DNA of 62,561 nucleotides, filler included, from Dugesia japonica (taxonomy: Eukaryota): NCBI GenBank assembly GCA_001938525.1. It is 5 parts of 5 records of this genome, joined end to end, with 100 filler letters (N's around TTAATTAATTAA, not from the genome) between each part and the next. Parts side by side here need not be neighbours in the genome. Positions count along the whole stretch, not along the records: positions 22,499 to 37,330 come from MQRL01611074.1; 4 more parts are not named here. One strand, written 5' to 3'. A model generated the notes under the pieces. The model saw only the letters and a list, made by a program, of their open reading frames with translations. It was not told the DNA's origin and made no database searches. Both the position numbers and the translations under genes were made by a program. This document shows, piece by piece, positions 2,526-52,885 of this stretch (positions are counted from its first letter, which is position 1; each line of letters opens with the position of its first letter).

Positions 2526-2554
2526 AAATCTTTGATGATCTGAGAACAAATAAC

Positions 2555-3278: not shown

Positions 3279-3328
3279 CACACAGACAAATCGACACACG
3301 AACAAATCGACACATAGACAAATCGTGT
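3279..3328. repeat. 16-bp tandem repeat running into a gap
   Basis: ACAAATCGACACA(C/T) units, three copies. Confidence 0.7.
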
Positions 3329-12222: not shown

Positions 12223-13573
12223 TTCTAAAACGAAATCAAAATATACGGTATTTTAAAAAATATTTTATAAATTAAAAACAGTTTGACTTGTTTTAATGGA
12301 GTGTTTGTTTTCTATACTGTATGCTGATTGGTGATAAGTAATATCGAACAAATAATTCACTAATTTAATATTAACATTCTCATCTTAACTGTTTGAAAGT
12401 TAAATAAGTGAATATTATTTACTCAGTAGCTGAAGGTTTTCAAATGTCATAAAAAATTTATTATCAGAATATTGTGAGATGTACGATCGTATTTCAAATT
12501 TGTGAGCAGATAAATTATGAGATTTTATTAAACTTTACACTGTTTATTTATCATGTGAAACCATAAAGAGCATTATTATGATATCCAACTTTACTTAAAC
12601 TTTTTTATAGTTTCAGTTTCATTTATGTAACCGATGAATACTTTTATTTCTCTTCTGGAATTATAGATTCAAGAACACTGACTCTCTGATCAACTAGGAA
12701 CTTCTGTTTTTGTTGTTTTTCTAAGACTTGTTTTACGATCAACAAAAATCTATATTTATTTTAACATTGATATGCATTGTTAGAGTTTAACGTTTGGGTT
12801 TTAAGTCTGAACCATGCAACCATATTTAGCCATCAATAATTGTTGCGCTTGTATTTATCATTATAAGCTCATCGTTTTCACAATAATGTTGAGGTAAAAC
12901 ACTTGATATATGAAGATAATAATAGCGATAGGTAGAGACAAAATCGGAGAGAATGATTTAAGGAAGAAAAATAAAGAAACCAGAAAATATGAAGTCAAAG
13001 ATCATTTAAAGAAATAAGTAATGAAAGAAAACCAAGATTTAGGAATTAAACCATGCAATAACCAGTAAAACCTTGAAACAAAAAGGGAAACAACTTGGAA
13101 ATGAGGAAANCAAAGAATAAAAAAATGATAGAAGCAGACTGAGAAGATAAAGAAAAACGGCTAATAATAACTGCAGCAAATATTTCATTAAGAAGAATAA
13201 AGAAAATTGATTTTTGATTTTGTTTTGATCGAAGCTTTATCTTATTTTAATGAAAAGAAAATTGAATTAAATTAATAATTAAAGAGGGAATAAATAATTT
13301 AAATGAATTATTTATCGAATTAAAATAAATTTCAGCTTGGAAACGAATAATGCCAATTTAATTAACAAATTAATTGAAAAGAATGTTGGGACAGAACCCA
13401 ACCACATCTGATTATCTTTACGGAATAGTGAGCAATTAAATCTATAATTGGCGGTAAAAGATAAATATTTCGTCATTAAAACAATTATTTATTAAATAAA
13501 ACGTTTCATCGACACAAAACCCACAATCTNNNNNNNNNNNNNNNNNNNNNNNNNNNNNNNNNNNNNNNNNNNN

Positions 13574-13585
13574 TTAATTAATTAA
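13574..13585. other. artificial scaffold-joining linker TTAATTAATTAA (also 22443, 37375, 50252)
   Basis: The same 12-mer with stops in all six frames is flanked by N runs at four places. Confidence 0.9.
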
Positions 13586-13923
13586 NNNNNNNNNNNNNNN
13601 NNNNNNNNNNNNNNNNNNNNNNNNNNNNNTGATAAACATTAAAATACTTGATAATTTTGACGATATTATTTATTACGATATCTATAAATAGGGATATGGA
13701 TATTTTATATTTAACAAAGGAGTTAATCAAGAAATAAAATAATTTCTGTTCTTTTAACAAATGAAGAAATTTCTGATGAATTTGAATTTATTACTTATCA
13801 GACATAAAAAATCTGATTTATGAGTTAAAAATTGCCTGACATAATTATTGACAAACCAAAATATTGAAATATCATATTGCATAATATGTGAACATTATTT
13901 ATATTAATCATTTATATTTTTAG

Positions 13924-15027
13924 GCCAAGAAAGAAGAAGTAGTTCATTTAAAAACTCTAACAAATATATTGAATGAACCAAAGTCTTCAGAATACAGTTG
14001 CCCTCAGTGTAACAAGGGCTATACATTTAAAAAAGCTCTTGTGAATCATTTATATATATGTGATCCAAAATATCAAGAACCGCTTCATTATATTCCTTGT
14101 AACTGTCCAATCCAGAATATTCATTCACTTTGTTCTCTTGATCAACATATTAGTAGTGTCCATGCTGACCAATATCACTATATATGTGGCATTTGTTTCG
14201 TAGAATTGTCTAAATCTGCTGAGTTATTTGAACATTTGTTTTTAAAACATGATTACTTATGGGACACATATAATGAATCTCCAATGGTTAAATTAAAAGA
14301 TGAAAATATTAATTTAAGTAACATGGGAGAAGATACAAATAAAGCTTCAGATTTCACAAGTAAGTATTCTGATGCTGGTGAATCTAGTAATAGTATTTTG
14401 GAAAATTGTCGTTTCGATTCTGAAAACGACGGAACTCCATTAAATCTTAAACCCAGTGTAAAACAAGCTTTCGTTAAATTAAACGATGAAAATATTAATT
14501 TAAGTAACATGGGAGAAGATACAAATAAAGCTTCAAGTGTCACGAGTAGATATTCTGATGCTGGTAATTCTAGTAATAGTAATTTGGAAAATTGTCGTTT
14601 CGATTCTGAAAACGACGGAACTCCATTAAATCTTAAACCCAGTGTAAAAGAAGCTTTCGTTAAATTAAAAGATGAAAATATTAATTTAAGTAACATGGGA
14701 GAAGATACAAATAAAGCTTCAAGTGTCACGAGTAGNTATTCTGATGCTGGTGATTCTAGTAAAAGTAATTTGGAAAATTGTCGTTTACATTCTGAAAACG
14801 ACGGAACTCCATTAAATATTAAGCCCGGTGTAAAACGAGCTTTTAAAGAAATTTCCCAAACAAAAACAAGTTCCTTTAAAAAGCCTAAGTTTGAAATGAC
14901 GAATTGTACTTCATCGAATTCTATCCCCATCGATCTCAACATGATTGTCATTTGTCCGGTTTGTGAAGGTCGGTATTTATCTGAAAAGGTTCTCAAAAGT
15001 CACATGGAGCGATATCATTCTCAATAG
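13924..15027 (+). CDS. C2H2 zinc-finger protein, terminal exon, with three 62-aa tandem repeats
   Basis: Acceptor tttttag|GCC in frame. Fingers CPQC..HLYIC, CNC..HISSVH, CGIC..HLFLKH and C-terminal CPVC..HMERYH. 5' exon not identified. Confidence 0.88.
   Translation, partial: AKKEEVVHLKTLTNILNEPKSSEYSCPQCNKGYTFKKALVNHLYICDPKYQEPLHYIPCNCPIQNIHSLCSLDQHISSVHADQYHYICGICFVELSKSAELFEHLFLKHDYLWDTYNESPMVKLKDENINLSNMGEDTNKASDFTSKYSDAGESSNSILENCRFDSENDGTPLNLKPSVKQAFVKLNDENINLSNMGEDTNKASSVTSRYSDAGNSSNSNLENCRFDSENDGTPLNLKPSVKEAFVKLKDENINLSNMGEDTNKASSVTSXYSDAGDSSKSNLENCRLHSENDGTPLNIKPGVKRAFKEISQTKTSSFKKPKFEMTNCTSSNSIPIDLNMIVICPVCEGRYLSEKVLKSHMERYHSQ
14287..14844 (+). repeat. 186-bp coding tandem repeat x3
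   Basis: GTTAAATTAAA(A/C)GATGAAAAT starts at 14287, 14473 and 14659. Confidence 0.95.
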
Positions 15028-17742: not shown

Positions 17743-20700
17743 CTACGACTTATATGTATTTTTAAAATTTTTTCCATTGGTTTACATTGAAATTTGAAAA
17801 TTTTCCTTTGTTTAGTGTTTTATTTATGTTATATTAAAAAGGCAATATTTTTAAAAAAATTTTAAAATCAATTAAAAAATTATTTTTATATTAAAATTAA
17901 TTTTTAAAAAAATAACATTTAAAAATTTCTTTTAAATTCGTATTAAAAATTTTTTTTATTTTTTTAATATTTTTTAGTTTTTTTTATAAAAATTTATTTA
18001 TTTTAAACATATTATTTATTGATATTGATATAAACTTTTTTTTGTTCAGTGAAAATTTTCATTTAAAATTTAAAAACAAATATTCTTTATTTTAAATTTT
18101 TTTTGTGAAATAAAGATTTTTTAAAAAAAATAATGACCAATCACACAAAAATTTCAACTCGCTTTTCAAAACACACTCACAATCTCATGAAAAGCTTTAC
18201 CAAAACTTTTACAAGTGTTGTGTTATTACTTCCACATAGCTTTCCCAAGCTTCTAGCTTTCTTTGAGTAATTATCGATAAACCGTCTATAGTAAGTTCTT
18301 CACACGTTTTGATCTTCAATTTTTGTTGGATCAGTTCCAACTCCATTCTTGTCTTTTACATGTCCTAAACTTTTAACTTATGCTCGCAAAAAATGACATT
18401 TTTCCGAATTAATTCTCAATTCTGATTTTTGGATTCTATTAAATGTATACCATCATTCCTCTCAATCTTCATAAACCTTTTGTCATGAATTCTCGAAACC
18501 TTGTTATCTATTGGTTCCGTACTGGAACTACCGAGAACTTGCAAACAAATTCGGTTCCACTCACGGCACCATCGAAAGCCACTTGCATGAAATTGGAAAA
18601 GTAAATTGAAGCAGAAATTGGGCCTCCACTAACTAGGCAACCACAAAATGATGCGAGTCTCCAATGGTTCTTCCTTGATTCTTGATTCGATAAAAAATAG
18701 ATGTCACAATAATACTACAAAAAACGNNNNNNNNNNNNNNNNNNNNNNNNNNNNTAACCAATTCTAAAGCTAGAAATTCATGGAAAGAAGATTACGCTTT
18801 GTGTATGGAGCAATATTAGGTAACCAAGAAAGTTCATTTGGTTCATTTCTCGAGAGACAAAGAAAATTAGCAAAAATCAAAATTATTTTAAAAAATAATT
18901 GTTTATTAAAATTGAGAAAAGTATTTTTGTTTTTCATTCTCTCACTGCACACCGGGACACCTAAAATTACGTATTTAGTAGGTTACTGATGAACAATTTG
19001 AAACCAGCTCTCGAGAACCAAAGCCATCTACATCTTCTATTTAAATGATACCAAAACAAGTCCCCCTGGCAGATAATACACGGATATGCCCAAAATATGT
19101 TCACCTGTAATGTGTTAAAGCTAAACAGTAATCTATAAGGTCAGTGACCTATATATGGTTGTTATGACAACGCATACCCCCATTTACTCGAGAAACATTA
19201 AAATTAAATTTTATTTAACATTTATACAAAATAAAAAAAATTATGAAAATAAAGATGTACAAAGAACCCCTTGATTTCATTGACATAACTAATGGATAGC
19301 TCCCTTTTAAGCAATACGTTAAGTAACTAAAATTCAAAATATGTAAATAAAAATAATTATTCCCAATAATTATTAGGAACCACCAAATATTTTTCAAGAG
19401 AAAAAATAATTACAGTAATTATGCAATGTTATGTAAAATAATGCAAAAATAAAATAATTAAAATAATTAATTGATCAAATAATATTAAAAATTTAAAATT
19501 ACAAAAAATAAATTCTTACATAAACAAAAACCTTGTTTAAAATATTCCTCACATTTAGAATGTTGCTTAGTAGAATTGTGAAATTCTCTTTTTCAAAAAT
19601 TCTTCATAAGATAAATATTATTTGAAAGCCTCTTTTCCAACAAAAATTTTAGTATTGTAGTCTATTTTATAGATCATCTTTGTGAAGAAACCAAGGATAT
19701 TTAATAAATATATTTTGTCAATATTCACCAATCCAATGTGCAGATTTTATTTGTAATTCAACATTCAATTCATCTAATTCCAAATGAAATTTTTCATTTC
19801 GATTTCCTTCCTCTTGTTAAATTCATTGTTTTATTTAAATTATTTATTTAAAAAATTTAATATTTGGAAAAGTCAGAGAATTAAATTGTTCATCATGATT
19901 GGAAACCGAATCTTGAAAAATCGCGTCCGTTTTTAATTATCCTTTTGATCAGAATTAGAAATTTCATCTGATATACTTTGGTTAAAATGTTTATCAATCC
20001 AACAAACTAAAGATTTATTAATAATAGATGCCATTTAAAAATATATTCAATGCAAATTAAAAACTTAGAAAAACTCATGTTTAATATATTATTCAAACAA
20101 ATATTCATAAAGTTAAAATAAAATGTAATAAAATTTGTTTTCTTTAATTGGGTATTAATATTAGCTATTTCTACTCAAAATTTAAATAAATTGCAAATAG
20201 TATTTATTAAATATTTTACTGTTTTACATAATGTATTTTTTATGAATTTTCAAATAGTTATAAGCCAATAAAATATTATTTTTCGAAAATTCTTAATTTT
20301 TTTACAAGAAAAAAGTAAGGTATATTATTACCATTCTCATTATTGAACAAAATTTGACGGAGGAGAGTCCACTGACATATTTTGGCGTAGTTCCGTTCAA
20401 CGATAAACTCCTGCAACAACTTATGGCAGTGACGAATGTTGTTGGGAAGGAGAACTCCAGGCCCTAAAATGTTGTGGAAAGCTATAGACATACACACATA
20501 TACATAAACAAGCATAGCAAACAAAATACTCATAATACATCTAGAAATATTAAACAACAATCAAAAAATAATTCATTAACCAATTCAAATCAACTCAAAC
20601 TTCAATAAGATCAAGATCGATTAAGATTATTCATCTTACTCTACAATAATTTGACTATTTATTTGATTCTGATCCTACAATAATTTGACAATTTATTTTA

Positions 20701-21466: not shown

Positions 21467-22653
21467 TGTGATGGTAGAAATTTTGAGGTTCTACCCTTTT
21501 TAATTTGATGATTTATGTGATTAAATCTAGGGGGTCGATCTTTATATAAAATCAAGTCTAGGGTCATTGATCTGGTAANNNNNNNNNNNNNNNNNNNNNN
21601 NNNNNNNNNNNNNNNNNNNNNNNNNNNNNNNNNNNNNNNNNNNNNNNNNNNNNNNNNNNNNNNNNNNNNNNNNNNNNNNNNNNNNNNNNNNNNNNNNNNN
21701 NNNNNNNNNNNNNNNNNNNNNNNNNNNNNNNNNNNNNNNNTTCCGTTACTCTATAATTAATTAAAATCCTAATAACTATTTAACAATTGGAAAAACAAAA
21801 GAATTTGTAAGTGAGAAATATATTATGATTTAAATTTCACTTGTGATACCATAATTTAACAATTAACATAATTAACACAACTAACGTGAATAGCATTTAT
21901 GTTCAATAGTGACTTCTGCGGTCCTCCATAATGATTATTCATAATAATCCAGTCGGAAATCGCCGCATCATTTATTCCATTTGTATCAATACTTACTCTT
22001 TGGGCCAGTTCGTTTTAGTTTTCCGTATTAAATTGTAATAATTCCGTATTAAAATTTGCTGATTTTGGTGAAAATCACATCGGTATTTATACCAGTTTTT
22101 TCTACGCCCCCGTTTATTTTATTGACGAAAATAAATTCTCGACGTTTTTATTGGCCATATGGTCACATGCTTTCTTCTTATTGTGGTTATTTTTGGATTT
22201 CGAAATTATTGGCCAACCTTCAAACCCTCATAACTTTTCCCCCTTTTTTGCCATGATTTTCCAACTTTAATTTTCGAATTCAGCGATTTTTTCTCGATCA
22301 GAAGTTTTTAAATTGATGATATTCGCACCACTAGAAGTCCTAATTTTCTTAGTTTTTGTAAAAAATTTAATTTTCTTTTTAAAATAAATCAATTTAATNN
22401 NNNNNNNNNNNNNNNNNNNNNNNNNNNNNNNNNNNNNNNNNNTTAATTAATTAANNNNNNNNNNNNNNNNNNNNNNNNNNNNNNNNNNNNNNNNNNNNCT
22501 GTCTATTTAATTTACCTCACAATGTTGATTGGTCAAATCATAATTGCATATATCTTTATTCCTCCTTTTTAGATTTTCATATTAATAAATATTATGGTTA
22601 TGAAACAGACGTATAACAAATACAAATATCACAATTCAACATAACAAACTCAC

Positions 22654-24691
22654 CTCCTCACAATTTCAATGATAAATTCATCATCAAATTTGTCTTCATC
22701 ATTTGGTTTGTGTTCTCCTCCTGGATTGATGCAATGCAAATATTCCATATCAATACTGAAAACTTTTGCAATTGATTGTTTTGCTGCGATTATTGTTTCT
22801 GGTTTGAATGAAATAAAAAAAATTAAATCTTTCCAGTTTCTTCTTATTTTGATTGGATATTTATTGATTACACTAAATATAACAATTAATCATAAATCTA
22901 TCCAATCAAAATCACTGTTCATCAATCCATTTATTCATCTCAGAATCACTGCAAGATCTCAATAAATATTGATTCATCCATCTAAATGAAAATATTCATC
23001 ATTGGAATATCTCATAATTGCAGCTCACAATCTCAGCCAATATCGCCAATCATTGCGAGAATCATTCAAATATTTCACAAAATAATCCAAACTATCGATT
23101 CTATCAAACAATATCAAATAAATTTATCAATAAATCATTTTATTTTACATGATGTCGCTCACTGATTTAATTGGTTCTATTTTTTTATTTTGTCTGAGAT
23201 TGAAAAGCTTCCATAAAGCTTCTAGAGCTCGCCTGAATCAATCAATATAAAAATAATTTATCAATAAATCATTTCATTTTACACGATGTCGTCCATTGAT
23301 TTATTTATTAATTTTTGTCTGAGATTGCAATATTTCCACAATGAAATTTGTCTGAATCAAATAAATCAATATAAAAAATTTGATTGATATATTCAATAAT
23401 CAATATGAAATGAGGGAGGCCAATCATGACACCAAATATCATTTGATAAATAATATATTGATTCCAATGACCATTATGATTTCTCATATCACCATATTTG
23501 AATGTGATCAATATTGATCTGGGTTGATCACAAATATTAATATTCCAATGATTTGTGCCATCATAATGCCATCCATCATTCATTCAATCAAACTTACATA
23601 GCAAATAGGAAATATTGATCAAATATCCTCACAAAACTAAATGATCAATCAATAACAAATCAATTGTGTCACACACAAATATCAATCTCACTCATTCCCA
23701 TATTGATACCTCAAAGATCTCAAATAATCATTACAAATATCAAAAATGCGATCTGTCATATCGATGCAAAATAGATTTGTCGAATTGATAAATGATGAGG
23801 ACAAATCTGACAAATTTAGATTCAATCTGTCATCAATTATATCATTTGATGAGATAAATAGTCTGCAATAAATTATTATTGATTAATTGTGAAATATTTC
23901 CATCAATCAATCACTTGATTTCATCAATAAGATTTATCAATATTGTTCTTGTTGATTCATTTTTATTATCATCACGAATCTGATCCCAACTATATTTGTA
24001 AAAAACAATCAATAATCACGATATAATCAATGCTAACAACAAATATTGATCCACTCTCCATCTGTCATGCAAATAGCAGCATTCATCAAATGTATTATTT
24101 CTCTCATTTCCTTTTCCATCATCACATCTAATCAAAAATTCAATTAATCAATTAATCCATATTCAAATCCACCTAATAATCAATTTGTAATTCTCATTTG
24201 CGTCAATCTTGGTGACAATTTGATCATTTTTCATTTGTTTGCCATCTGCATTCCAAATATTGATTATTTCAGAATGAATCCTTTCTATTATTGATCTGAT
24301 TGTTGAAATGGTATCATTCATTTTCACAATTAAGTATTCACCACCAAAATTGTGTTCATAATATAACACATCCACAATGACATCATCTTTTCTATAAATA
24401 AAGTCAATCACAAATATTCCATTTACATCAATTAATTTACTTTCTCAAATAATTATCAATTTTACCAAACCAAATTTCATCATTTTCACATATTTTGTAA
24501 TTTTTTATCAAAACATTATTAAATAAAATAATATTTTTATGAATTAATCTGAAATAATATTTTGTAAATTTTCCATTTCTATGAAGAATCTCATCTAATT
24601 TATATTTTATATCTTCCACCATCAAAGATTCATTGATATGAATATCTATTTTTTCATTATTATTTTCTCCATTTATAATAAATAATTTCAT
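22654..24691 (-). CDS. multi-exon gene (possibly disrupted) with two to three ubiquitin-like domains
   Basis: Exon 1 MKLFI..KIDIHINESLMVEDIKYKL..FRLIHKNIIL..IKNYKICENDEIW fits the Ubl pattern. A 49-nt GT-AG intron (24392-24440) joins in frame to ..IVKMNDTISTIRSIIE..DGKQMKNDQIV. More short GT-AG introns with open exons follow. Exon 22654-22872 reads IKIRRNWKDLIFFISFKPETIIAAKQSIAKVFSIDMEYLHCINPGG and ends at gtgagt. Confidence 0.65.
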
Positions 24692-26076
24692 TAATCAATA
24701 ATAAATAATCTTAAAGAAACAATCACAATCAAATTTTCATTTTTAATAAAATATTAATTTAATTAATTTGAATAATTGAATTATGAAAAATTCATTTCCA
24801 ACAGATTTCATACAACTGATAACAACAATTATTAAAATATGAAATATCTAGATTTATACAATTTCTTATAAAATTATTTAATTATACTCAATATTAAAAA
24901 TTCTTTGCTATTATCAAAATTCTTTTAAAATTTATTGATAAAATTGATTCATTATAANNNNNNNNNNNNNNNNNNNNNNNNNNNNNNNNNNNNNNNNNNN
25001 NNNNNNNNNNNNNNNNNNNNNNNNNNNNNNNNNNNNNNNNNNNNNNNNNNNNNNNNNNNNNNNNNNNNNNNNNNNNNNNNNNNNNNNNNNNNNNNNNNNN
25101 NNNNNNNNNNNTAATTTCCTGATTTTAAATAAATTTTTGATTGTTATTGCTATAATTTAACATTTTGAAGATTGGAATATTTTTAATCAATTTGAAATTT
25201 TTTAATTTCAATCAAAATAAATTACAAAATAGAGAAAGGATAAAAGAATATAGAATGTAACTGCCATTTATTATGATTATTAAATGGAGGTGTATACATT
25301 TAAATAAAAATGAACCATTTTTTAGTTACACATTCGTATTTACTCTATTTTTTAGTAATTCTTTATTACATTTCTTGCATTTTACTGTTTTATTTCTAGA
25401 GTTGGAAACCCTTTAGTACAAATATATTAATGTTGAAAACCAATTAAGTAGTTTTGACAATTATTGTTTCCTTATAAAAATATTGAAATAATAGGTAGAT
25501 AGTGGCGCACTGGATCACTTCCACCCGTTTGTAAAAGTTACTACGTAAGTGATTTAGAACTTTTCAGGCTTTTTAAGTGAGACATACAACTATGTGCATT
25601 ACATAATTGGATTAATTTCGTCGGCGACATTAAAGCATAAGTGATTCAGAAAATCACAATGTAAAAAGGCGACGAGCAAAATTTATTTGCGATTAGATAA
25701 CTTTTGCTCTAATTTTTTCTATTTTACCGAATTATTTTCAAATTTTTACCTTTTCAAGTGACAATATTTTTCAAGATTTTTCTAGGCTTTCAGTATTTCA
25801 GTGTTTAATACTTGTACAATAGTTCAACTTTCTGATTTCTTAAACCTTTCAAAAAATCTTGAATCATTATTTTCTCTTTATTTTTATTGATACTCATGGT
25901 TTAATGAATTCGACGTTCACATACTCAATTGATATTTTTTGGTTATCAAAATCAGGCTAAGACTTGACTTCTTTAACTAAATCCCTTCAAAAAATATTTG
26001 AAAAAATTTTACATTTGACTTCTTCAATTAAGTATCGAATTAATTGTTGAAATATTGCTGTTGGGATGAAACACAC

Positions 26077-26444
26077 CACTAAAGAGAAGGCAAAGCCACC
26101 ACAAATTATAAAATGTTAAAAGAAATAAAAGAATCAAAGATTCAGATGAAAAATACACCAAAGATGGTTAAAAGAAAAAGAAGAATAAAACCTGGTTTGG
26201 AATCAATTAGTGGATGCATAAAAATACGAAAAACCAGTGAAAATAAAACCGGATAATCAAAATCAACATCCATCCATTTAAATCAATTAGAAGAAATTAT
26301 AAATTAATATAATTAGAAGAAAAGAAAATATCTAATAAAACATTTAATTATGAGAAAAATATTAATTAATTAAGTGTTAAAATAAATGAAAATTAAATCC
26401 AAATCCGTTTTTTCTAAATATCTTTGCTGTAAAAAATCCGAGGA
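26077..26444 (+). repeat. ~365-bp direct repeat of 26890-27258
   Basis: Near-identical, about 8 substitutions by eye; the copies diverge after AAAAAATCCGAGGA. Confidence 0.95.
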
Positions 26445-26469
26445 AGTAGTAGGAAAGGAGGACACGAGG

Positions 26470-26594
26470 ACAAAGTAGGTCAAAGGGGGACATATCCCCC
26501 GTTGCCATGGCAACCGTCCTTAGCAACGGAAACTAGGTCAGGGTCGTTTTCATAGCAACCAAAAAGTAGGTCCAGGTCATTGGTTACTATAAAT
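26470..26594 (+). promoter_or_regulatory. cluster of RFX X-boxes, AAA(G/C)TAGGTCA nuclear-receptor half-sites and a TATA box
   Basis: GTTGCCATGGCAAC (26501-26514, perfect palindrome), GTCCTTAGCAAC (26516-26527), GTTTTCATAGCAAC (26546-26559); AAAGTAGGTCA (26472), AAACTAGGTCA (26530), AAAGTAGGTCCAGGTCA (26563); TATAAAT (26588). Confidence 0.7.
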
Positions 26595-28113
26595 TGTTTT
26601 GAACTTTAATTAATTTCAATTTACAGAGATTTCACTGCTTTCGACGAGTTCTCGTGACTCCGTCAATGACAAATTTATCTCAAATTTTAAAGCGAAAAAC
26701 TTGTTACCCCTGATAGATGAAACTGAGAAGAACAGTTCTTACACCTTCTATTATAGCTAGACAGCTATAACAGATTAATTATTAATTATTAATTATTAAA
26801 CATATATTAAAATTTACGTTTTAGTTAATGTCTGCGACANNNNNNNNNNNNNNNNNNNNNNNNNNNNNNNNNNNNNNNNNNNNNNNNNNCCACTAAAGAG
26901 AAGGCAAAGCCGCCACAAATTATAAAATGTTAAAAGAAAGAAAAGAATCAAAGATACAGATGAAAAATACACCAAAGATGGTTAAAAGAAGAAGAAGAAT
27001 AAAACCTGGTTGGGAATCAATTAGTGGATGCATAAAAATACGAAAAACCAGTGAAAATAAAACCGGATAATCAAAACCAACATCCATCCATTTAAATCAA
27101 TTAGAAGAAATTATAAATTATTATAATTAGAAGAAAATAAAATATCTAATAAAACATTTAATTATGAGAAAAATATTAATTAATTAAGTGTTAAAATAAA
27201 TGAAAATTAAATCCAAATCCGTTTTTTCTAAATATCTTTGCTGTAAAAAATCCGAGGAGTTCAGCTTAAGGAAATTTCGGAAGGATTCGGAAGGGGTCAT
27301 CATCCAGAATATTCAGGGAGGATCTTGAAAACTGGACCAATGAAATACCTGAAAAATAAATAAAACAAAGGCACAATTATTATGTGCCGTTCCAAAAATA
27401 ACTGCCAATTGAAACTCCAAAACTCTGAAAATATTTCAGAAAATTGGCAATAGGACCAATAAGAAGCGGTGAACTCTAAACTAAAAATAATTAGCAAATA
27501 CGAACAAAGTTAGGGTGCGAAGAAAACCGTATAAAAGAACTCCAAAAATTATTAAAACACAACTACCAAAATTTTCAACTTCAATTTTACAACAACTATT
27601 TTTCGGAAGTTACCATTTTTCAAAGGCAACAGAAGTGTCCACTGAAATCAACCATTTTTCAAATACAACCAAATTATCAACTGTAAACTTTATCAGTAGA
27701 AAATGATTAATAAAAAAGCGAATTCTTGATTGAAAAAGGAGTTTTGATTACTATCCTACTTATCAAAATAAAGCGTAACCCGTTGTCGTGCAACTAGTTA
27801 CCTACTACGACATTAACAAATAAAATTATATTTTTGGATTGTGGTTTAGTCGATAATTTTCCTTGAAAATAGAAATTATCCATATCGTCGAGGAGTATTG
27901 ATTTTATTCGAAAAATTCAATAAACCATTGAAGAATTTCCTGTGAAAATTATTATTAGTAAGTAGTATGTTTAAATTATGATTATCTACATATTAGTATA
28001 AATTAATAAATGTTTCTGATTTTATTTTGGTTAATCGCTGATAAAATTTTTGTATATTTAATAATTAATTAATGTCCTTATACAGTTTACTCAGGATATA
28101 AGCAGGATCTATA

Positions 28114-28330
28114 ATGGGTGTTATTGATAAAATTGATTAAAACATTCATGGAGTATATGTTGCCATGGAAGTGAAAATTTTGCTAACTAGCATTTTAAAT
28201 CAACAATATATTGGGTCAAGCACTTAATTGAGATAATCGTATGCGGTTGATAAACACACCCAGCAGATTAAGTGTGTATTACGATTTTTCAGCACTGAAA
28301 AAATTTACATCATCCATAAGAAGACGAGTA
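28114..28330 (+). pseudogene. cassette copy 1, ORF0 remnant
   Basis: VKIL...(frameshift)YWVKH...RFFS parallels VKILAIQGEMQSHYWVCH...VRFFS in ORF 52983-53252. Confidence 0.4.
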
Positions 28331-28491
28331 TTTTCCTACTATTTTAAAAAATATTTTTAAATTTTTTTCTTGCATTACAATAACCCAGTTCAGTATTACA
28401 AATTTTTCAGGGTTAATGTGAATGTAGCGGAATAAGATAATCTGTTACAAATTCATTCCCATAAATTATATTAAAATTTACGTTTTAGTTA

Positions 28492-28686
28492 ATGTCTGCG
28501 ACATTAAGGAGTACTCTATATTGGATCAAGAAACAACAAGGAAAGGCTTGTCTAAAGCAAAACTTTGCGCACATATTGTCGCGGGGAATAGTGGAGCATT
28601 CGGACGAAACGGATTTGGCCTGTTTCGCCGAGATGTTTCCCGTGCCAGCAAATATGGATTTAGATGCAAAAAAGGGGTTACATTAA
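28492..28686 (+). CDS. cassette copy 1, ORF1 (64 aa, unknown)
   Basis: HILSRGIVEHSDETDLACFAEMFP aligns with HILFNGIIEHPDETDLRCFAEMYP at 54041-54229; preceded by ttttag. Confidence 0.75.
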   Translation: MSATLRSTLYWIKKQQGKACLKQNFAHILSRGIVEHSDETDLACFAEMFPVPANMDLDAKKGLH

Positions 28687-28825
28687 TTATTGCCGAATTA
28701 AATAAAACTTTCTGTCTTGGGTTTTAGTGATCAGGGAGTAATTGTTCTCGAAAATTTTATAAAAAAAAATATATATATTCGTTTCTTTTATTTGTTGTAT
28801 TAAACTAATTTCTATAACTATAGGA

Positions 28826-29203
28826 ATGAAATCCATTTGGGAGCGAATAGTCGATCGGCGAACGCGACGCATCATCTTTCGATGTCATCATAACCCGCAT
28901 AACCGCGATGCAGGTATCTTGGTAGAACGAACTAACCTGCCTCCTGTAGATGCCGTGGTAGCTCGCATTCAGAGCTTCGGGGAAAGATTGGACTACCAAC
29001 AATGGAATGGCCCAACGCGAAATCACACTACCCCTTTTCATTATCAGGCTCCGGCCCCTCTCCCAGTGGTGCAAGCGTTTATCAATAACTTGCTCTGGGT
29101 GTTAGGGAACTCTCGGGGGTTGAGGACACGGAAAACACGGTCCCTGCTACGGACACAGCCTCTAACTTATAGTGCCTATCTTAATTGTCATAAAAATTTA
29201 TAA
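28826..29203 (+). CDS. cassette copy 1, ORF2 (~115-125 aa, unknown)
   Basis: HNPHNRDA, WNGP and AF.NN.LW..NS blocks shared with 54396-54816. A likely late frameshift in the G-run near 29115 restores ENTVPATDTASNL, matching ENTATPSSNS in copy 2. Confidence 0.75.
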   Translation: MKSIWERIVDRRTRRIIFRCHHNPHNRDAGILVERTNLPPVDAVVARIQSFGERLDYQQWNGPTRNHTTPFHYQAPAPLPVVQAFINNLLWVLGNSRGLRTRKTRSLLRTQPLTYSAYLNCHKNL

Positions 29204-29382
29204 ATAAATATGTGTTTCTATTTAATAGTAATCTAATTCATTCTGTTCATTATTTTATTGAGGAAACAAAATTTTTCTTTTGTTTGTTTTTTGTTGTTAA
29301 TAATAATAAAATTGCGGTCTGCTACTAAGGAAACAAGAGTCTCGAGTACTTTCTTAACGTAGTTAATGTATACTCTTTTGCA

Positions 29383-29766
29383 GTGCATTCGTCGCTGAAC
29401 CGCTCTACAGCTCACACCAAAAATATGAGGGATACCAGCGAGGACCAAGAGATGACTTGGGACCTCTACCGGCTTGCGAAGCGACGCTGGGAAGCAGAAA
29501 TAGCCGCCGCGAATAGTAAGGTATCTCGGTACAAGAAAAAGTGTATCGTCTTTAAAAAGGAAGCCGAGGCCTCCTACTTGCAGGAGGGAGCATGGAAAAA
29601 ACAGGTCGAGTCCTTTGCGGAAATCATCCGGTCCAGCCATGGCCGAGAGAATAAACTGGTTGATGATGTCTTACATCTCAGAGAAATGATACCTCTCGAG
29701 CATTTGATGATCATAACCCCGCATGTGTTCTTAAATAAATGTATCACGAATTTGACATTGTTTTAG
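29383..29766 (+). CDS. cassette copy 1, ORF3 (charged, predicted coiled-coil; begins at a splice acceptor)
   Basis: ttttgcag|TG CAT. VHSSL...QEMTWDLY..KRRWEA...SKV.RYK.KC.VFKKE.EAS is shared with 54982-55324. Confidence 0.75.
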   Translation: MHSSLNRSTAHTKNMRDTSEDQEMTWDLYRLAKRRWEAEIAAANSKVSRYKKKCIVFKKEAEASYLQEGAWKKQVESFAEIIRSSHGRENKLVDDVLHLREMIPLEHLMIITPHVFLNKCITNLTLF

Positions 29767-29816
29767 TATCTGATACTTCTGATTAAACTATCTGTTCATT
29801 AATTTAATTTCTTTTA

Positions 29817-30152
29817 GTGCCCCGCATCAACTTTCCCAATAGTATTCGTAGATGTCATCGCATAATGCGCCGTCTGCTTCTAGAGCGCCACTTAAAGCAG
29901 AAAGCTGATAGGGCATTGATTAAACATCTTGACCAGCGAGATCGTCTGATCAAAAAACTTGATCAGATTGTGAAAATGCAGCATGACCTGGCAGTGCAAG
30001 CCAAAGCATTTGAAGATGAAAATAAATTGTTGCTTCAGAGGAAAGTTGATTTTCTTAAGCAATATATATCCGACCTCTCCCGTCAATTTGGAAACCCTAC
30101 TGGGTCCAATGGGACGACAACGACGATGTCGCCGCCTTCAATTTCTTGGTAA
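29817..30152 (+). CDS. cassette copy 1, ORF4 (basic N-terminus, predicted coiled-coil; begins at a splice acceptor)
   Basis: cttttag|TG CCC. VPRI...HRI...LLLERH.K....RAL..HL is shared with 55488-55605. Confidence 0.72.
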   Translation: MPRINFPNSIRRCHRIMRRLLLERHLKQKADRALIKHLDQRDRLIKKLDQIVKMQHDLAVQAKAFEDENKLLLQRKVDFLKQYISDLSRQFGNPTGSNGTTTTMSPPSISW

Positions 30153-30439
30153 CCGACCCAGATCAGTGGTTAGATCCTAGCGCGTTGGGAGAGATGTAAT
30201 TGTTATGATAATAGAACTTTTTGACTAGTTTTCTTTGCATCGTATGTACAAGTTAAGGGAAAGATATGGACCCAAACTATAGGTGTACGGGTGTGCACCT
30301 CTCATAAAGTAAGAGGTCAACCCCCCTACACTGAAAGCCTAAATAAGGGACTTTAGGTTAAATTCTTGAAGGGGTCCTCTGAGGGCTGTTTTTCCCCAGC
30401 CTCAAGTTTTCATCACTCAACTCAGGTGGAACCCCAACA

Positions 30440-31925
30440 TTGCGAATAAAGTTGCTATTGAATCGATTGAATGTGAAGATTGTGTGGTGGAAGAAATATA
30501 AGATGAAAACATTATATAATGAAGTAATGCACTCTATGAGAATGGAGATAGAGATTATGTATATAATAATCAGAGTTACAAATGACAATATAAACATAAA
30601 TATAAAGAAGGATTTAAAGGTTTCAAATCTAATGGAGTTGGATACATTGCAAAATTCTGTAAAATTAATAAGTTTTTCAACAATGGAGAAAATCATTTAA
30701 TAAAATTTAGGGAAAACAAAAACTTTCAGTATTGTTAAACAGAAGACGATGGAAATATCTCAAATATACAATGTAGAAGAAAATACTTCAAAAGATTTAA
30801 TATTCAATATTTTTAATGAAATTATTAGCTCGAAAACGATTCAAAAGACTTCAGATTATTTGTAAGATTATTCATCAGGAAAACCTCAATTAAACATGCG
30901 TGGTCATCAAATAGAACCAAAAGACTTTAGCGGGTTTTCCAGAAAAGACAGATGTATTGGATAATTATGTAAGTTATATTAATGAACACGGTGTAAAGCC
31001 CAAATCAATAATTAGAAAATATGAACCTAATTTGATTTCAATGTCAAGAAAGGAAGTTACAAGAATTAAACGCATTGTTGAATGTCAACTAAAAGAAGAG
31101 GAAATCCGAATAATGTTCGATATTTGTGCTGATCTCAATGTAATCAACGAAACATTAGCAAAAAGATTAGTGAAACAAAATTATGATCTGAAAATTCAAA
31201 ATTCGACAACTAGAGTGACTTGTGAGAATGGAAACTTAGTAAATTGTTTAGAAAAACTAACTCTAAAAGAGACTTATTAATAAGTGTCAGTTTGGTGAAG
31301 AGTTATTCTAGATATATTCTTATCAGAATATACATACTCAATGGAGGATCTAAAACCTTGTATACAGAAACAACTTTAGGTTGTGTGGAACGATTGGAAG
31401 AAAATATAACAAAAGAAGATTTATACCTCAGAAATTTATCGAATTATCAAATCAAGGTTGATAATTCAGATACTGCCAGAATTTTGAATGATATTGAATT
31501 GCAACTGAAAAATGAAAGAAAAGAATCGAAAATTATGGCACTAATGAGAATAATTGTATGATAATTTAAATGTTTTCAGTAAGCATAAAATGAATATTTA
31601 AAGAACAAATGCCATTTAATATGCTTTAGAAACAAAGAATGATTTTTTCATAGTATTTAAACCCCAAAAAAAACCAAAATGTGTAGAAAATAAAGTTTGA
31701 AAAAAATTAAAGAACTTTAAGAAAACGATAATATAAGAGAAAGTACTCCACTTAGTTTCCCACCTGTGTTTGTTAGAAAAAGGAATGAAGAAATAAGAAT
31801 GTGCGTTGATTATAAGTCTTAAAATGCAAAAATATCTTGACCAATTTTTACCATTCCATCTGCTAATGAATTATTTGATACAGTTTCTGATTCAATTTAT
31901 TCCGCAAGTCTAGATAAGGAATCTG
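30440..31925 (+). mobile_element. degenerate Ty3/Gypsy (gag?)-protease-RT fragment
   Basis: Retropepsin-like EIRIMFDICADLNVINETLA; RT start IRESTP..PPVFVRKRNEEIRMCVDYK..F.IPSANELFD....SLD, with stops and frameshifts. The gag assignment for 30440-30950 is positional only. Confidence 0.85.
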
Positions 31926-34899
31926 ATAAGGAATTTGAATGCATAACATTGCGCGGCTTTACTTTGCGTGTCTATTGATACCAAATTTGTGACTGTTTAA
32001 TAAGAATTGTAGATATGTTGGGTTGCCAGGCTTTTGATGTTGATTTATACTCGATCTCCTGAGTTTTATTACCATTCTTCTGATCACCATTTTCGTTTTC
32101 ATAGATATAATTTCTGTCTGGGGATGATACCCAGCAACCACAGAAATTTGTGTTACTCTTTCTAATAACACGATCCCCCATTTCCCGGATTCAGCGGGAC
32201 TATGCTGTATCCCGTCTTAGGTTCCAATTTCTATCCGGCTCTCGTTTTATAATTAAACGTCATTAGCCATTATTAACTCCTGCTATAATCAAAAATTGAG
32301 AAATACAATCTGTACAAAATTTTATTCGTATCCATATTTATNNNNNNNNNNNNNNNNNNNNNNNNNNNNNNNNNNNNNNNNNNNNNNNNNNAAATACAAT
32401 CTGTACAAAATTTTATTCGTATCCATATTTATCACCCGTCCAATGTTTCTCATGCATCCAATTCAGTGACTTCCTGAACTGCTCCCTTTGAGATTCCATT
32501 CTCCGACTTCGAAACTTGTGCTATGTCGTGTATTTTATTGCGAGACATCCATCCTTCTCCGAATAACGACTGATCCATTAGCCAGCTTCGCTATCAATGA
32601 TATAAACATTTTAAATATTCGTATCATAATTTCTCTAGAATAATAAATAAATAACGATTGATAATAAAATGAGTAATATTTTCATAAACATTCACAATAT
32701 ACGTAATATAATAATTAACATAAGCAGTTTAATAAATATTTCATCAGAGTCAAGATTAATAAGAGTCAGAATCCAATTAATCAGTTAGGATTCAACCACC
32801 CCACCACTCGTAGTCATAGACATTCAACTTTCATATTTTATAACCATTTATACACACTGATAGTTTTATTTGTTTTCTTCTTCATTTAAATCAACTAAAA
32901 CATGACTTTTAATTCAATACTTTATTTCAATTACAATTAATTCTTTTTTGAAATTCTTCTTTCCTTTTGAACGCTTCTTTCAAAACTTGCCTTTCTAAAT
33001 TTATATTTTTGAATAAATAATAAATTTAAATAAATTTATTATATTTATTAAAAATATATTTTTTAAATCTAAAACTTCGAATTTACACTAATTTAAAAAA
33101 TAAAGCAATAAATTTTAATTATTAAAATTTTTTATAATTATTTACATTAAAAAATTTAAGCTAATAACATTGCATTAAATTTTTAAATATTTGCAAATTT
33201 TTAAAATTACCTAACACACACTATCATTCGTTCATAATTCATCTCTCATATCCTTTTAGATAATCACTTCATTTTACTTCTCGAACCATAATACAACATC
33301 TTTCATCTTTCATCTCTCACAACTCGCAGTCTTTCATAAACATCTTTCAGAAATCTCTCTCAACTTTTTATAAATACCTTTCTCAGCTTTTATAATCTTT
33401 AACATCTTTTATCCCTCATAATATAATGGTGGATGATCTCCCCAGGAAGTAGCTGATAAGATGGACCGTCAGAGATAGCAGAACTACCCTCAGACTATCC
33501 ATCCTTCAGTGTCTTCCAAATAAAACCAGTTAAAAATAACATAACATAAAAATAAAAAGAATCCTTACTTCTTCTTCGGCTAGTTGTTCCAATTAAATTG
33601 CTAATGGTGTTTCAATGGAAATTTTTAAGAGTGTTTTTCTAATGATTTTGATTTCCTTTTTTTCCTCACTCTATCGTCAAATTTTGACTGATACAGTTGG
33701 CGTCCACTTCAGATTTCTGTTAATACAAGAAATCGTACGTTGTTCACCCGTAGCTTCTACAGAGATGTCTAAATATGGGCGTGATTATTTTTATTTTTTT
33801 TTAATTCTGTAGTGGATTATGTGCTCACAGATGTTCTATGTGTTTTTCCTCAAGTGGAGAGGCTTAAAAAAAAATTTCTGAAACTTGTAAGTGTTTTAGA
33901 AATAGCGATAACTCCACAATCACATACAAATATAAACATATCAATCCTATATTCTCACAAAAAATCATCATATCTTCTACATATAAGTTTCGGTTATAAT
34001 TCTTCCGGGTTCATTATAAATAATAATATTTATTGAATAATAATAATTTTAATTATATTTATCGATAATAATAATAATTTCTCATTTTATATTTTTTATA
34101 AAATTATAATAATAATGTTATTCTTGTACTTAAACCTGACTCATAATCTATTATTTTATTATTTATAACGATCATGATAATTTATTCTGTTTTTCCTCCT
34201 ATAATTTCTCTCTAAAATATCAAAATATTTTAATATAATTATTTGTTTTAATCTTTCTTTTTCTCTCATCAATATACTTTTATTTTTAACACATGGATAC
34301 TTTCAACACATTTATACAAATTATAAATAATAATAGATATTCCTTCTTGTATTACCATTCTTCTTTTCGATCCCTTTGACTTATTTTCTGAGCACATTTT
34401 ACCTTAGCCATCTAATTATTGATTATCTTCANNNNNNNNNNNNNNNNNNNNNNNNNNNNNNNNNNNNNNNNNNNNNNNNNNNNNNNNNNNNNNNNNNNNN
34501 NNNNNNNNNNNNNNNTAGATTTTGTTTGATATTTCTTACACTTTTTAACTTCAGTTATTATTATTTAATAATCGTTTCCTTATTATTTCATAGGTCAATA
34601 TTTCTTTTATTTCTCATTATTTATTTATTTATTATTTTTTTAATTCATTTTCTTATTACTCTTTAATTTATTTCCTTCTATAATTTTCATATTTTACAAA
34701 AGGCTGTTTAAGCCCAACAGATAATACAAACGAAAAACAAAAAAAATTGATGACCTTGAAAAAATTTTCCCTAGGGAGGGAGGTGCGGTTGAAAAAATAA
34801 AAGTATAATTATTTTAAATAAAATTCTATGACCTTGAAAAAAAATTTTAAAAAATAAAAAAATTTCAAAAATAAAAAAAAATCCCCTAATTTTTTTAGC

Positions 34900-35600: not shown

Positions 35601-37589
35601 TCACTAATCAGTCGGGCGGGGTTTACTGAATGTGTGCTGGCTATATACACTACTATCCGTCTACTGCCCTCAACTCAAATACGTCAAATTAATACTTCTT
35701 CGGTTTCTTTCAACTCATAAACTTTAAATAACTTTTCTGGAGTTTCTTTCAACTAGTATCGTTATTAAAATGATTTTATTTTATCAGAACTGTGGTAAGA
35801 AAATGTAGCAGGATTTTACTTAAAGTGTAATACCAAACTTAAAATAACGAATGATTCAAAACTTTAACAAGAGATTATCAACTCAAAATCTAATTATATT
35901 TGGTCTGAAAACCCGCTTGATTTTAAACTGATTTAATAGGTTTTATTATTTTGATTCCACTTGATTTGCGGCACCAAATTTCTTTCGTATTTAAACTTAA
36001 AATTATTTTAAAATTTTTTCGAAAAAATTTTGTCAATCAATATTAATTTTATCTGTTGTAATTCAGTATTTATTGTTATTAGCTATTTGTATAAAAGTAT
36101 TTCGCTTTATAATTAAAATGTGTGGCTACGATAATATGTTAAATTATAGGTGATTTAGATACAGTTATAATTGTAGGTTTTATAGAAAATAATGAACAAT
36201 TACTTTATAAAAACTTTATTTTTAAAAATCGGCGTTACAGTAGTTATAATTTTATTTTCAAGCTGCTCGTCAAAGGAGTTAGTTGTAAAATTATAAAAAA
36301 TTTTAAGCGTAATTTTCTACAAGATTGTAACACTCATACACTATTTGTAATTGATCAAAAATTTTCGACAATATTATGTACATTTACAAAAAATCAATTT
36401 TTCTTTGCAAATAAATAACTCTTTTTTTTGATTAATAACAACTGGTTTTTTTGATACAATTCGTTTAAATATAATTTCTTTAGTTTTTCAGTTCTTTCTT
36501 TTATTTTATCGTTGACTGCATTGCCCTCACTAAATTTCTCTCCAGTTGATTTTTCTGCATTCAGTATGTTCCATTTTTACCTTTATTCATATTAATATTC
36601 TCACTTTATTTAACTTTTCTCCGTTGTTGGTCCAATAAATTTTCTATAATTTACTTATTCTTTATTTTTTAATTTATTTCTTTTCATTTCTTGTCCCTTC
36701 TTCCTTCTCTATCTACTTTGTTTACTCGTGACGATAATTTATATTTGTTATAGCCCAACACTTAGATTTTTAAAAATATTTTTATTATCACTGTTGATGT
36801 AAATTGACATCACAATTGTTAACAAGTCATGCCTTCCCAATTTAAATGAATTAAATTACCTGTCTTTTGGTGAAAGTAAATAACAAGAAAACTACAAATA
36901 AAAACATGATATAGCGAGGCCATATCAGTTACTTACCTGCCTTCATTTATTTCTTTCCTTAATTATGTCTACTTATCTTCTGCTTTTCTGTTTCCTACTG
37001 CGTTTTTATTTGTGTATTTTGTTAAATATAATCTTCTCATTAGAATTTAAATCCTTTTTTTGTTGTATAAATTAAATATTTAAATTCAATTATTTGTCCT
37101 GAGACTTTATGATCTATTTGTTTAGGTATCTTTGATAAAAATTAAATATTTTTATATTAAAAAAAGTGGAAAAATTAATATGTATAATTATCAGTTTGAA
37201 CATTTCTACACGTGAATATTTATCCGTGTTGACTTTTATCACAAATCGATTGAAAATTATTACTTTATTATATTCTAAACAACAAAATGAATTTCTATTT
37301 TTTATTTATTTGTCTTGATTAAATTTAATTNNNNNNNNNNNNNNNNNNNNNNNNNNNNNNNNNNNNNNNNNNNNTTAATTAATTAANNNNNNNNNNNNNN
37401 NNNNNNNNNNNNNNNNNNNNNNNNNNNNNNATAATAATAATAGCAATAATAATAATAATTATAACGATTCTCTGGATAATATTTCTGGCCCAGTTCATCA
37501 ATTTTGTGTCGATTATTTACTATTCTATCCGTTTTCATTATTCTCTATTTCTTTATTACCTTGAGTAATTTTGGTGTTCCAGCCCAACA

Positions 37590-38767
37590 ATTCTAAGTCC
37601 ATTGGTTTCCTATAAGGTTTAACATTGATTGGTTCACCACTTGTTATTATTATGTGTCTTGCTAGAATTGTGCGTCCTACATCCCATTTATCTGCCATAA
37701 AAGCATATTTTCGACTTTCAATTATTTTCAATAACCGTTGATCGTTTTTATTCTTCAAAGCATTTAAGGCTCTTGTCAATAGCTCTCCTTTTTTAATTTT
37801 TCTTCAAAATATCGTTTTAATATTGCAAATGTAATTTTCAACTTTTTTATCCGCTTTTCAATCAACCTTTTGCTTAAGCTGATATCGAAAGATTTTATGC
37901 ATATCTATTCCTTCTATCAGATCTGGTGTCACTCTTTCAGCAACTAAGAAAGTAATCTCTTTGCAAACTTCATCAATTATCACTCCAGTTCTAACTTTCC
38001 TAACAATTTCAAGTGTACTTTTATTTGCACAACTCAATCTTTCATCACTCATTTCGAAATGTACTTTTCATAATTTATTAAAAATACTCAAATTCATCAC
38101 ATTAATTCGAGCCACTGTATCTAATAGACATTTGACTTTATTTTCTTGAATTGATACCGTAAAGCTTGGTCTGCCTTGCAATTTATGGTACGAAATATTT
38201 GTTTTCTGTTTTGATTCAACTGTTTCAACATATTCTACTTTTCTATCATCCACAAAAAGTTTCCCTCTTTATGAACCTTAATACTTTTTCTGTAGCTTTA
38301 CCGATATCATAACAATTTTCAACACCTTGAGGATAATTACTGACTTTATTTAACAATATAGATGGCTTCAACCAACTCCCCTACTAATAAAACCTTCTAA
38401 TATAGCCAACTTTTCAGCAACCAACAAATTTTGTTGGTTTTTTATTTAGACAATCTCGACTTATATGTCCTTTTTATGACAAGTCCACACTCTACTACTT
38501 TTTTTAGTCAAACAATTTACTTTAGTGCGACCAGTCTGATAACAAAACCAACATTTGATATTTTGTTTTTCCTTTCTTTGACCCACATATCAATTTACTG
38601 TAAAATCTTAAACTTTCTGATAACTTTGACTTGTAACTCTTGCGTAACTACTAACTGCATCAACTTGAACTCTGTTTTCTCTACTCGATTTACAAACACC
38701 ATCGTTTTTTCAATTTCTTCTATATTTTGTTGTTTCCACAAAGTAACTTCTTCCTCAACTTTTTGTA
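37590..38767 (-). mobile_element. degenerate Ty3/Gypsy gag-protease-RT start
   Basis: Two CCHC-like knuckles (KCWFCYQTGRTKVNC; frameshifted ECWTCHKKGHISRDC), protease KVKCLLDTVARINVM, RT lead-in DVGRTILARHIIITSGEPINVKPYRKP. Confidence 0.9.

Positions 38768-52851: not shown

Positions 52852-52852
<1 letters not shown>

Positions 52853-52882: not shown

Positions 52883-52885
<3 letters not shown>

Follow-up and report, generated by a model that had tools for sequence, protein, structure and literature searches.

A cluster of RFX-type and nuclear-receptor-type motifs on an abundant mobile element, beside a cassette of orphan reading frames, in Dugesia japonica

Burro (PMC6431247), a giant Ty3/gypsy element of dugesiid planarians, exceeds 30 kb and encodes a polyprotein of ~5,000 residues with MATH, BCL2, BIR and env domains, and expression of BURRO1 is reported to be restricted to one tissue, the intestine (PMC8532177). 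For planarians, the same source attributes the tissue specificity of transposon expression to chromatin that opens regionally, and the words 'motif' and 'enhancer' are absent from its main text. Elsewhere, parasite-borne X-boxes combined with repeats of nuclear-receptor half-sites, as in the locus described below, are found in hepatitis B virus enhancer I (RFX1/EF-C, HNF4, RXR), where the RFX/receptor pairing serves a liver programme and not cilia (PMC7077322), and in Oikopleura Tor elements (promoter Penv; PMC4402516) and complex retroviruses a promoter outside the long terminal repeat (LTR) drives extra genes downstream of it in particular tissues. Here we describe a compact cluster of X-box and AGGTCA motifs in a stretch of 62,561 nucleotides of Dugesia japonica DNA (parts of assembly GCA_001938525.1, joined end to end; hereafter the window). 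The cluster lies in a short segment, B1, that belongs as a module to a mobile element of very high abundance, and other copies of this element keep and reshuffle the X-box/AGGTCA units.

With somewhat more confidence than doubt, we read B1 as an element-borne module at which RFX and a nuclear receptor jointly open the element and drive spliced RNAs of its accessory open reading frames (ORFs).

The motif cluster in segment B1

The motifs at 26472-26594 form a genuine cluster and resemble the binding sites of two classes of host transcription factor, RFX and nuclear receptors (Table 1). The strings named in an earlier reading of the DNA from its letters alone, the sequence-only reading, all sit where that reading put them, at 26472-26594 and with an ATG at 26828. 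The looser pattern used for X-boxes was GTHNYYATRRNAAC, and the ROR response element (RORE) is an A/T-rich flank followed by RGGTCA. The strict RFX1 consensus, GTNRCC(N0-3)RGYAAC as quoted in PMC7077322, is matched by one of the three named X-boxes (26501); that at 26546 matches only the looser pattern, and that at 26516 matches neither. Of the three X-boxes that had been claimed, two are therefore full sites, one perfect and one with two mismatches, but the stretch at 26516-26527 is only a half-site.

Among the receptor-type sites, those at 26535 and 26568 are the window's only two direct repeats without spacer (DR0) at no more than one mismatch, each carrying one, and a direct repeat with a two-base spacer (DR2) occurs at 26477 only, with two mismatches. 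All three AAANTAGGTC sites of the 62.5-kb window fall inside the cluster, whose 112-bp core has a G+C content of 50%, the window's 1-kb bins having 16-42%.

In 20,000 dinucleotide shuffles of 26445-26640, neither two or more X-box-consensus sites nor three AAANTAGGTC sites were ever obtained, and three AGGTCA were obtained in 0.06%. The richest 130-bp stretch of the whole window holds five sites (two X-box, three RORE-like), and when the whole window was shuffled in 200-bp blocks, so that the look-elsewhere effect is included, five sites were reached in 0 of 200 shuffles and four in 1 of 200. These figures overstate the case, because the motif patterns were picked post hoc and the units of the cluster resemble tandem duplicates of each other and so are not independent. 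Even allowing for this, chance does not account for the cluster.

Given that the motifs recur on the minus strand at 19138-19171, where an X-box is followed by AGGTCA, the window offers a second instance of the arrangement. AGGTCA lies within 45 bases of all three X-box-consensus sites in the window; in 1,000 shuffles made with B1 removed, an X-box arose in 297, an X-box with AGGTCA at no more than 45 bases in 9, and the strict order of the two, itself a post hoc pattern, in none. Outside the motifs no homology of the second site to B1 was found, its rank being 1,861 of 4,663 tiles, like random sequence, and no Pfam match was found in the surrounding DNA. That the two sites are alike in motifs only favours a host binding grammar over a private accident of one element. 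At the second site two AGGTCA copies, one base apart, make up a perfect inverted repeat, and a looser overlap of AGTAGGT and an X-box-like motif lies 150 bases away, at 18969-18994. A transposase reading of 17900-18726 was considered and found no Pfam support.

The palindromes might instead be elements of RNA or DNA structure (packaging, dimer, recombination) or splice signals and not factor sites at all. In folding, B1 outdid each of 100 shuffles (z -3.0), the letters AGGT hold the AG/GT of a splice donor, and RNA reads cross the cluster, all of which would suit such a role. However, the folding follows from the palindromes themselves, and the loop of the hairpin at 26492 is variable, with 1 or 4 bases often absent at 26492-26493 in other copies. 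The AGGTCA direct repeats are not palindromic, and the second site shares motif order and spacing with B1 and no other similarity. We therefore regard a structural role as quite improbable.

Placement, copies and carrier of B1

B1 lies between two flanks, A and C, and a longer segment, B2, lies between their near-identical counterparts A' and C'; in the self-comparison a 50-N gap separates C from A'. Flank A is part of a hydrophobic minus-strand reading frame interrupted by stops, and a second, diverged copy of the downstream ORF cassette has a 104-residue open stretch at the corresponding position. Aligned with B2, B1 scored 23 (shuffle maximum 33), and aligned with the second cassette's spacer it scored 31 (maximum 32), whereas B2 and the second spacer scored 63 (maximum 43) and are partly homologous. 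Given that B1 and B2 are unalignable while B2 aligns with the second spacer, B1 is a replacement module and not the intact form of B2. An antisense stretch common to B2 and the second cassette (27327-27458 in B2) is missing from B1. The sequence-only reading had seen a decayed variant of the cluster at ~27779; GTTGTCGTGCAAC is indeed present at 27782, but decay from B1 is unsupported, the B1/B2 alignment being at shuffle level. X-box-like and AGTAGG/GGGTCA motifs also occur in B2 in two small groups, at 27755-27812 and 28159-28220, whereas the sequence-only reading had noted one.

The 50-N gaps at 32342 and 48782 have duplicated flanks, which indicates that such gaps mark overlapping contigs. 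The tandem order A-B1-C/A'-B2-C' is thus likely to be an assembler artefact, with B1 and B2 probably haplotypes or paralogues of one place. The start that had been assigned to cassette ORF1 at 26828 is present as an ATG, but just 12 bases remain there before the 50-N gap, and the full ORF1 occupies 28492-28686, behind B2. B1 ends at a 50-N gap in an order that is probably artefactual, next to gaps elsewhere with duplicated flanks, and it was reasonable to ask whether the cluster is itself a chance assembly of motifs or an assembler chimera. The module is nevertheless found in contigs from two DNA data sets that are independent of each other, and also among RNA reads, and its motif content is far beyond that of the shuffles; the doubt is limited to the placement of B1 in this assembly, and we consider it very unlikely indeed that the cluster arose in either way. 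At 13530-13629, 22399-22498, 37331-37430 and 50208-50307, a 12-base core (TTAATTAATTAA at 22443 and 50252, the two that were read) sits between two 44-N runs; these are scaffolding spacers, and the pieces flanking them are possibly non-contiguous in the genome.

Part of 26890-30400 was found in 11 public runs, 10 of them from one organism, each with at most 0.32 of the sampled words; no RNA run was listed as containing it, a result that does not bear on expression. Of the runs listed, 4 of 24 were aligned to 26445-30400 at 90% likeness, two as DNA contigs (X1, X2) and two as RNA reads (X12, X13). The runs may come from another strain or a close species. Summed contig depth, which is not equal to copy number, was 77,751, 213,296 and 107,416 over the three bins of B1 in X1 and 70,084, 176,556 and 89,124 in X2; elsewhere it was 891-1,954 in A' and 17-264 in the inner bins of B2, so that B1 and inner B2 differ by two to three orders of magnitude. 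The ORF bins had summed depths of 115-3,404 with peaks of 14,867-42,926, and a patch of ORF3 at 29642 had 161,409-171,060. Given the high depth over both B1 and this patch, one abundant family appears to hold both. Depth within B1 is patchy (467 at 26492, 972 at 26550), and the exact version of B1 seen here is thus much rarer than its core.

Nearly all other copies aligned have A at 26541 (70,463 of 70,467 depth in X1, from 45 contigs; 68,333 of 68,366 in X2, from 42 contigs; 14 of 14 reads in X13), which gives them a TCAAGGTC core at 26538-26545. Units of the cluster are repeated or reordered in other copies, with joints from 26515 to 26500 (X1, X13) and from 26540 to 26499 (X13). The letters of the X-box and of GTAGGTC lie between the joints, and several of the loose ends listed (20 of 610) carry TAGGTCAAGG; differences, likewise, are those listed, 40 of 179. 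Contigs at least 99% alike numbered 642 of 4,281 and 544 of 3,989. As had been proposed, the cluster is part of a repeated element that carries an ORF cassette. Absence of the motifs from other family copies would have spoken against that reading, but X-box and AGGTCA units are kept there.

The cassette comprises four ORFs, and in its second copy the ORF set occupies 54041-55601. Comparison of ORF1-4 between the two cassettes over 256 aligned codons gave a proportion of synonymous differences (pS) of 0.75 vs 0.28 for nonsynonymous differences (pN), and third positions were the most frequent mismatches in 5 of 5 ORF blocks; the excess of pS over pN together with the third-position bias indicates that the cassette ORFs are genes under constraint. 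The copy analyzed here is drifting, in that 10 of its 13 listed ORF differences from the family change a residue. By eye, a splice-acceptor-like site lies just 5' of each ORF, and ORF3 and ORF4 are in phase 1 in both cassettes. A homolog search with ORF2 returned 0 of 11 candidates, two with ORF3 returned one low-complexity repeat protein and nothing, respectively, and an exact look-up of seven proteins matched none. The protein atlas gave generic coiled-coil or sub-0.9 matches only, viral and metagenome contigs scanned for sequence patterns and for proteins gave no match, and the structure model of ORF2 had a predicted local distance difference test score (pLDDT) of 49. The second cassette has in-frame stops in ORF2-4, a longer spacer and, by eye, a possible short ORF at ~53750-53900; degenerate tandem repeats lie near it, at 50617-50971.

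The likeliest carrier of the cassette is an LTR retroelement of the Ty3/gypsy class that has accessory genes, to judge from the putative LTR-like and primer-site-like letters after ORF4 and from broken protease and reverse transcriptase (RT) fragments 0.8-1.8 kb after it. Maverick/Polinton elements are marked by PolB, integrase, ATPase, capsid and terminal inverted repeats. That the same module rides on a large DNA element of this kind, or on another non-LTR carrier, with the gypsy remains an unrelated neighbour, is in our judgement unlikely. In its favour, no LTR pair or integrase was seen near the cassette, orphan ORFs that are short and spliced are numerous on both strands, and Mavericks are expanded in Dugesia (10.64898/2025.12.11.693146) and are targets of PIWI-interacting RNAs in planarians (PMC8532177). 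Against it, none of the Maverick marks was found beside the cassette in this fragmented window, the 23, 13, 11 and 9 translations scanned giving no polymerase, ATPase, integrase or capsid match, and a purine tract and TGTAA follow directly after ORF4.

Table 1. Features of the window, with positions counted along its whole length
Feature	Position	Strand	Remarks
Segment B1	26445-26802	+	358 bp; motif cluster, TATA-like box, short exon; self-BLAST
Flank A	26076-26444	strandless	97.8% identical to A' (26890-27258); self-BLAST
Flank C	26803-26839	+	37 bp, 100% identical to C' (28467-28503); acceptor and first 12 bases of ORF1
Segment B2	27259-28466	strandless	1,208 bp; alternative to B1 between A' and C'
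AAAGTAGGTCA	26472-26482	+	Nuclear-receptor half-site, A/T-rich 5' flank; RORE-like, 0 mismatches
GGGGGA-CATA-TCCCCC	26485-26500	strandless	6-bp inverted repeat, 4-base loop
GTTGCCATGGCAAC	26501-26514	strandless	Perfect palindromic X-box; matches RFX1 consensus (PMC7077322)
GTCCTTAGCAAC	26516-26527	+	12-bp X-box half-site (TAGCAAC); fails both full consensus patterns
AAACTAGGTCA	26530-26540	+	RORE-like half-site, 0 mismatches; second half-site adjoins (DR0, 26535-26546)
GTTTTCATAGCAAC	26546-26559	strandless	Second X-box, 2 mismatches
AAAGTAGGTCCAGGTCA	26563-26579	+	A/T-flanked DR0 (26568-26579); RORE-like with 1 mismatch
GTTACTA, X-box left half	26583	+	Overlaps TATA-like box
TATAAAT, TATA-like box	26588-26594	+	
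Initiator-like motif	26616-26622	+	Putative; A at 26618, 30 bases beyond TATA-like box
Exon-like coding stretch	26627-26760	+	44 codons, no ATG; frame 26626-26757, then TAG
X-box + AGGTCA composite	19138-19171	-	X-box, 6 bases, TAGGTCA; order and spacing as in B1 (there 7 bases)
Cassette ORF1	28492-28686	+	64 amino acids, orphan
Cassette ORF2	28826-29203	+	125 amino acids, orphan
Cassette ORF3 exon	29384-29766	+	Starts at acceptor in phase 1; orphan
Cassette ORF4 exon	29818-30152	+	Starts at acceptor in phase 1; orphan
Second, diverged cassette copy	51658-55601	+	48-67% amino-acid identity in ORF blocks; B2-type spacer
Purine tract (30187-30194), LTR-like TGTAA (30195), primer-site-like TGG (30427)	30187-30435	+	8-base tract; by eye, putative
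Broken Ty3/gypsy fragments	30915-31930	+	Asp_protease_2, E 0.002 (below cut-off); Ty3 RT, E 0.0004

Further gypsy-like fragments lie at 961-1215, 37525-37803 and 42209-43207 (integrase core, E 5e-5 and 0.03). On the minus strand, 22640-24694 contains broken frames that start with a ubiquitin-like piece (Pfam E 0.022) and may represent a decayed gene or a fragment of an element polyprotein; a BCL2-like or Burro reading of 22600-24900 was also considered, and Pfam gave it no support. The window further contains an intronless protein kinase of 505 amino acids (5972-7489) with no relative above ~30% identity over most of the domain, a C2H2 zinc-finger ORF with three 186-bp in-frame repeats (13924-15027), and the last exon of a TMEM129 E3 ligase gene (57192-57515, minus strand; Pfam E 1e-33, best match 76%). 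Repeated fragments occur at 58254-58554, 59562-59681 and 61294-61710, of which one piece was scanned and gave no Pfam match; we take them to resemble Penelope-type GIY-YIG endonuclease ends.

Transcription and the candidate factors

The exon-like stretch of B1 is preceded immediately by a splice-acceptor-like TTTACAG, 8 bases past 26618. Three of its four listed differences from the family are synonymous third positions, and its frame is carried on at either side by RNA loose ends of other copies, as judged by eye; it has no Pfam match. On the minus strand, 26643-26777 gave a weak match to the U2 small nuclear RNA (RF00004; 23.9 bits against a gathering score of 46, E 0.1), which was rejected and probably arose by chance, the variation in this stretch being that of coding sequence on the plus strand. 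This match covers the most conserved part of the exon.

The cluster probably switches on the small extra genes of the element in some cell type. A short unit, an X-box with an A/T-flanked AGGTCA direct repeat, would have been duplicated and reshuffled among copies, as happens in viral and LTR enhancers. RFX and a nuclear receptor, both supplied by the host, would then bind B1 together, their joint binding would open the element in one cell type by promoter or enhancer activity, and the orphan ORFs would be made from spliced RNAs, each by way of its own acceptor.

A ROR/Rev-erb element is a lone half-site, or a DR2 for Rev-erb dimers, and a TCAAGGTC core is the site of FTZ-F1/SF-1, ERR and GCNF receptors. 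The ROR/Rev-erb-type label given to the AGGTCA sites in the sequence-only reading is not supported, in that two of the three sites are DR0 and other copies carry the TCAAGGTC core; moreover, ROR and E75/Rev-erb are reported missing from flatworms (PMC8363021). The flatworm list given there, whose table has a published correction, includes FTZ-F1, HR39, HNF4, COUP-TF, TR4 and a divergent NR1b with an HR3/ROR-like DNA-binding domain, and schistosome FTZ-F1 is reported to bind a human SF-1 element (PMC8673669). FTZ-F1/HR39, HNF4/COUP-TF/TR4 or a divergent NR1 are more likely candidates for the receptor than ROR or Rev-erb.

In Schmidtea mediterranea the RFX motif is enriched in cilia gene modules and a receptor motif in gut and parenchyma (PMC12660999), and BURRO1 is derepressed mainly in the intestine (PMC8532177). 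With RFX pointing to cilia and the receptor to gut and parenchyma, the motif pair does not indicate one cell type.

The sequence-only reading had proposed a two-way TATA promoter, starting at ~26620 and driven by RFX and a ROR/Rev-erb-type receptor in ciliated cells or the male germline. The cluster has two perfect RORE-like sites and one with a single mismatch, the RFX motif marks planarian cilia modules (PMC12660999), the flatworm NR1b receptor has an HR3/ROR-like DNA-binding domain (PMC8363021), and X13 reads lie on both strands. The 30 bases from the TATA-like box at 26588 to the initiator at 26618, a spacing shared by 11 of the 198 TATAAAW sites in the window, likewise fit a start near 26620, but no read ends pile up there, and an acceptor and coding exon follow at 26625-26627, the acceptor only 8 bases past the supposed start. 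The DR0 arrangement at two of three sites, the reported lack of ROR and E75/Rev-erb in flatworms (PMC8363021) and the association of the receptor motif with gut and parenchyma (PMC12660999) all speak against the proposed factors, and B1 does not have the antisense stretch that is common to B2 and the second cassette. This proposal therefore appears improbable.

Several observations also weigh against our own account, in which RFX and a receptor act jointly on B1. The exon has no ATG and needs an upstream exon, so that a start at 26618 does not fit: either the cluster is an enhancer within an intron, transcription starting upstream of it, or in the B1 copy the exon is no more than a relic. RNA reads are few (in X12, 10.5 million reads, or 6% of the run, gave 17 that aligned; in X13, 13.6 million, or 25%, gave 86), none is at least 99% like the B1 copy, and 17 of 17 (X12) and 78 of 86 (X13) align partially. 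They cross the motif cluster on both strands (X13 first mates, plus/minus: 8.2/2.4, 12.5/2.5, 8.5/5.0), and the 5' ends of the 17 X12 and 86 X13 reads show no pile-up over the module. No aligned contig spans the joint from A' to B1 or that from C to ORF1. The second cassette and B2 are without the motif cluster, which indicates that the ORFs can exist without it. As to the carrier, no other copy of 30195-30430 is found in the window that could serve as a second LTR, no integrase beside the cassette and no primer tRNA were found, and the gypsy remains may have been inserted separately.

Comparison with described elements

A bolder extension of our account, which we put forward tentatively and with considerably more doubt than belief, is that mobile elements of this animal hold an exchangeable promoter cartridge whose RFX and DR0 nuclear-receptor grammar is fixed, that the exchange of B1 for B2 re-targets the orphan cassette to a different cell type, and that unrelated elements, such as the one at 19138-19171, converged on that grammar. 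If true, this would provide an element-borne cause for the cell-type-specific expression of planarian transposons, so far ascribed to position in opened chromatin, and would expose an undescribed partnership between host RFX and a nuclear receptor, to which the occurrence of an X-box and DR0 pair twice in one window points. The borrowing of host-factor sites by elements is well known, and in this respect the locus is not new in kind; what sets it apart is that the X-box/DR0 grammar recurs and that the module is swappable, together with a cassette of four constrained ORFs without known relatives. A many-copy module of 125 bp offers a test of whether tissue-specific transposon expression is encoded by the element or set by genome position. 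To our knowledge, compact cell-type promoters are scarce in this animal group, and such a promoter would be a handy tool. Searches of open-access full text gave no paper that describes an RFX/nuclear-receptor module on a transposon of an invertebrate, although supplements or repeat libraries may hold the element.

Like Burro, the element here has a very high copy number, accessory ORFs and an AT-rich host, and at a distance of 1.7 kb the minus strand holds a ubiquitin-like fragment (E 0.022). Unlike Burro, it gave no giant polyprotein and no MATH, BIR, BCL2 or env match in the frames scanned, in a fragmented window of short contigs. The cassette may be part of a Burro element, the likeness being one to the description of Burro and not to its sequence.

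In a plant gypsy lineage with TRP28, an extended region likewise holds additional ORFs, frames in antisense and tandem repeats, and no TRP28 match was found here. B1 can also be likened to the promoter outside the LTR of Tor Penv, but that promoter drives env, whereas here there are orphan ORFs with several acceptors and the promoter activity is only putative. Hepatitis B virus is a vertebrate DNA virus with a single X-box, whereas B1 is a tandem X-box/DR0 array in an invertebrate genomic repeat, and we claim no homology between the two. The RFX/nuclear-receptor module that we describe is real, rides on an element and belongs to a known kind, its recurring grammar being unusual.

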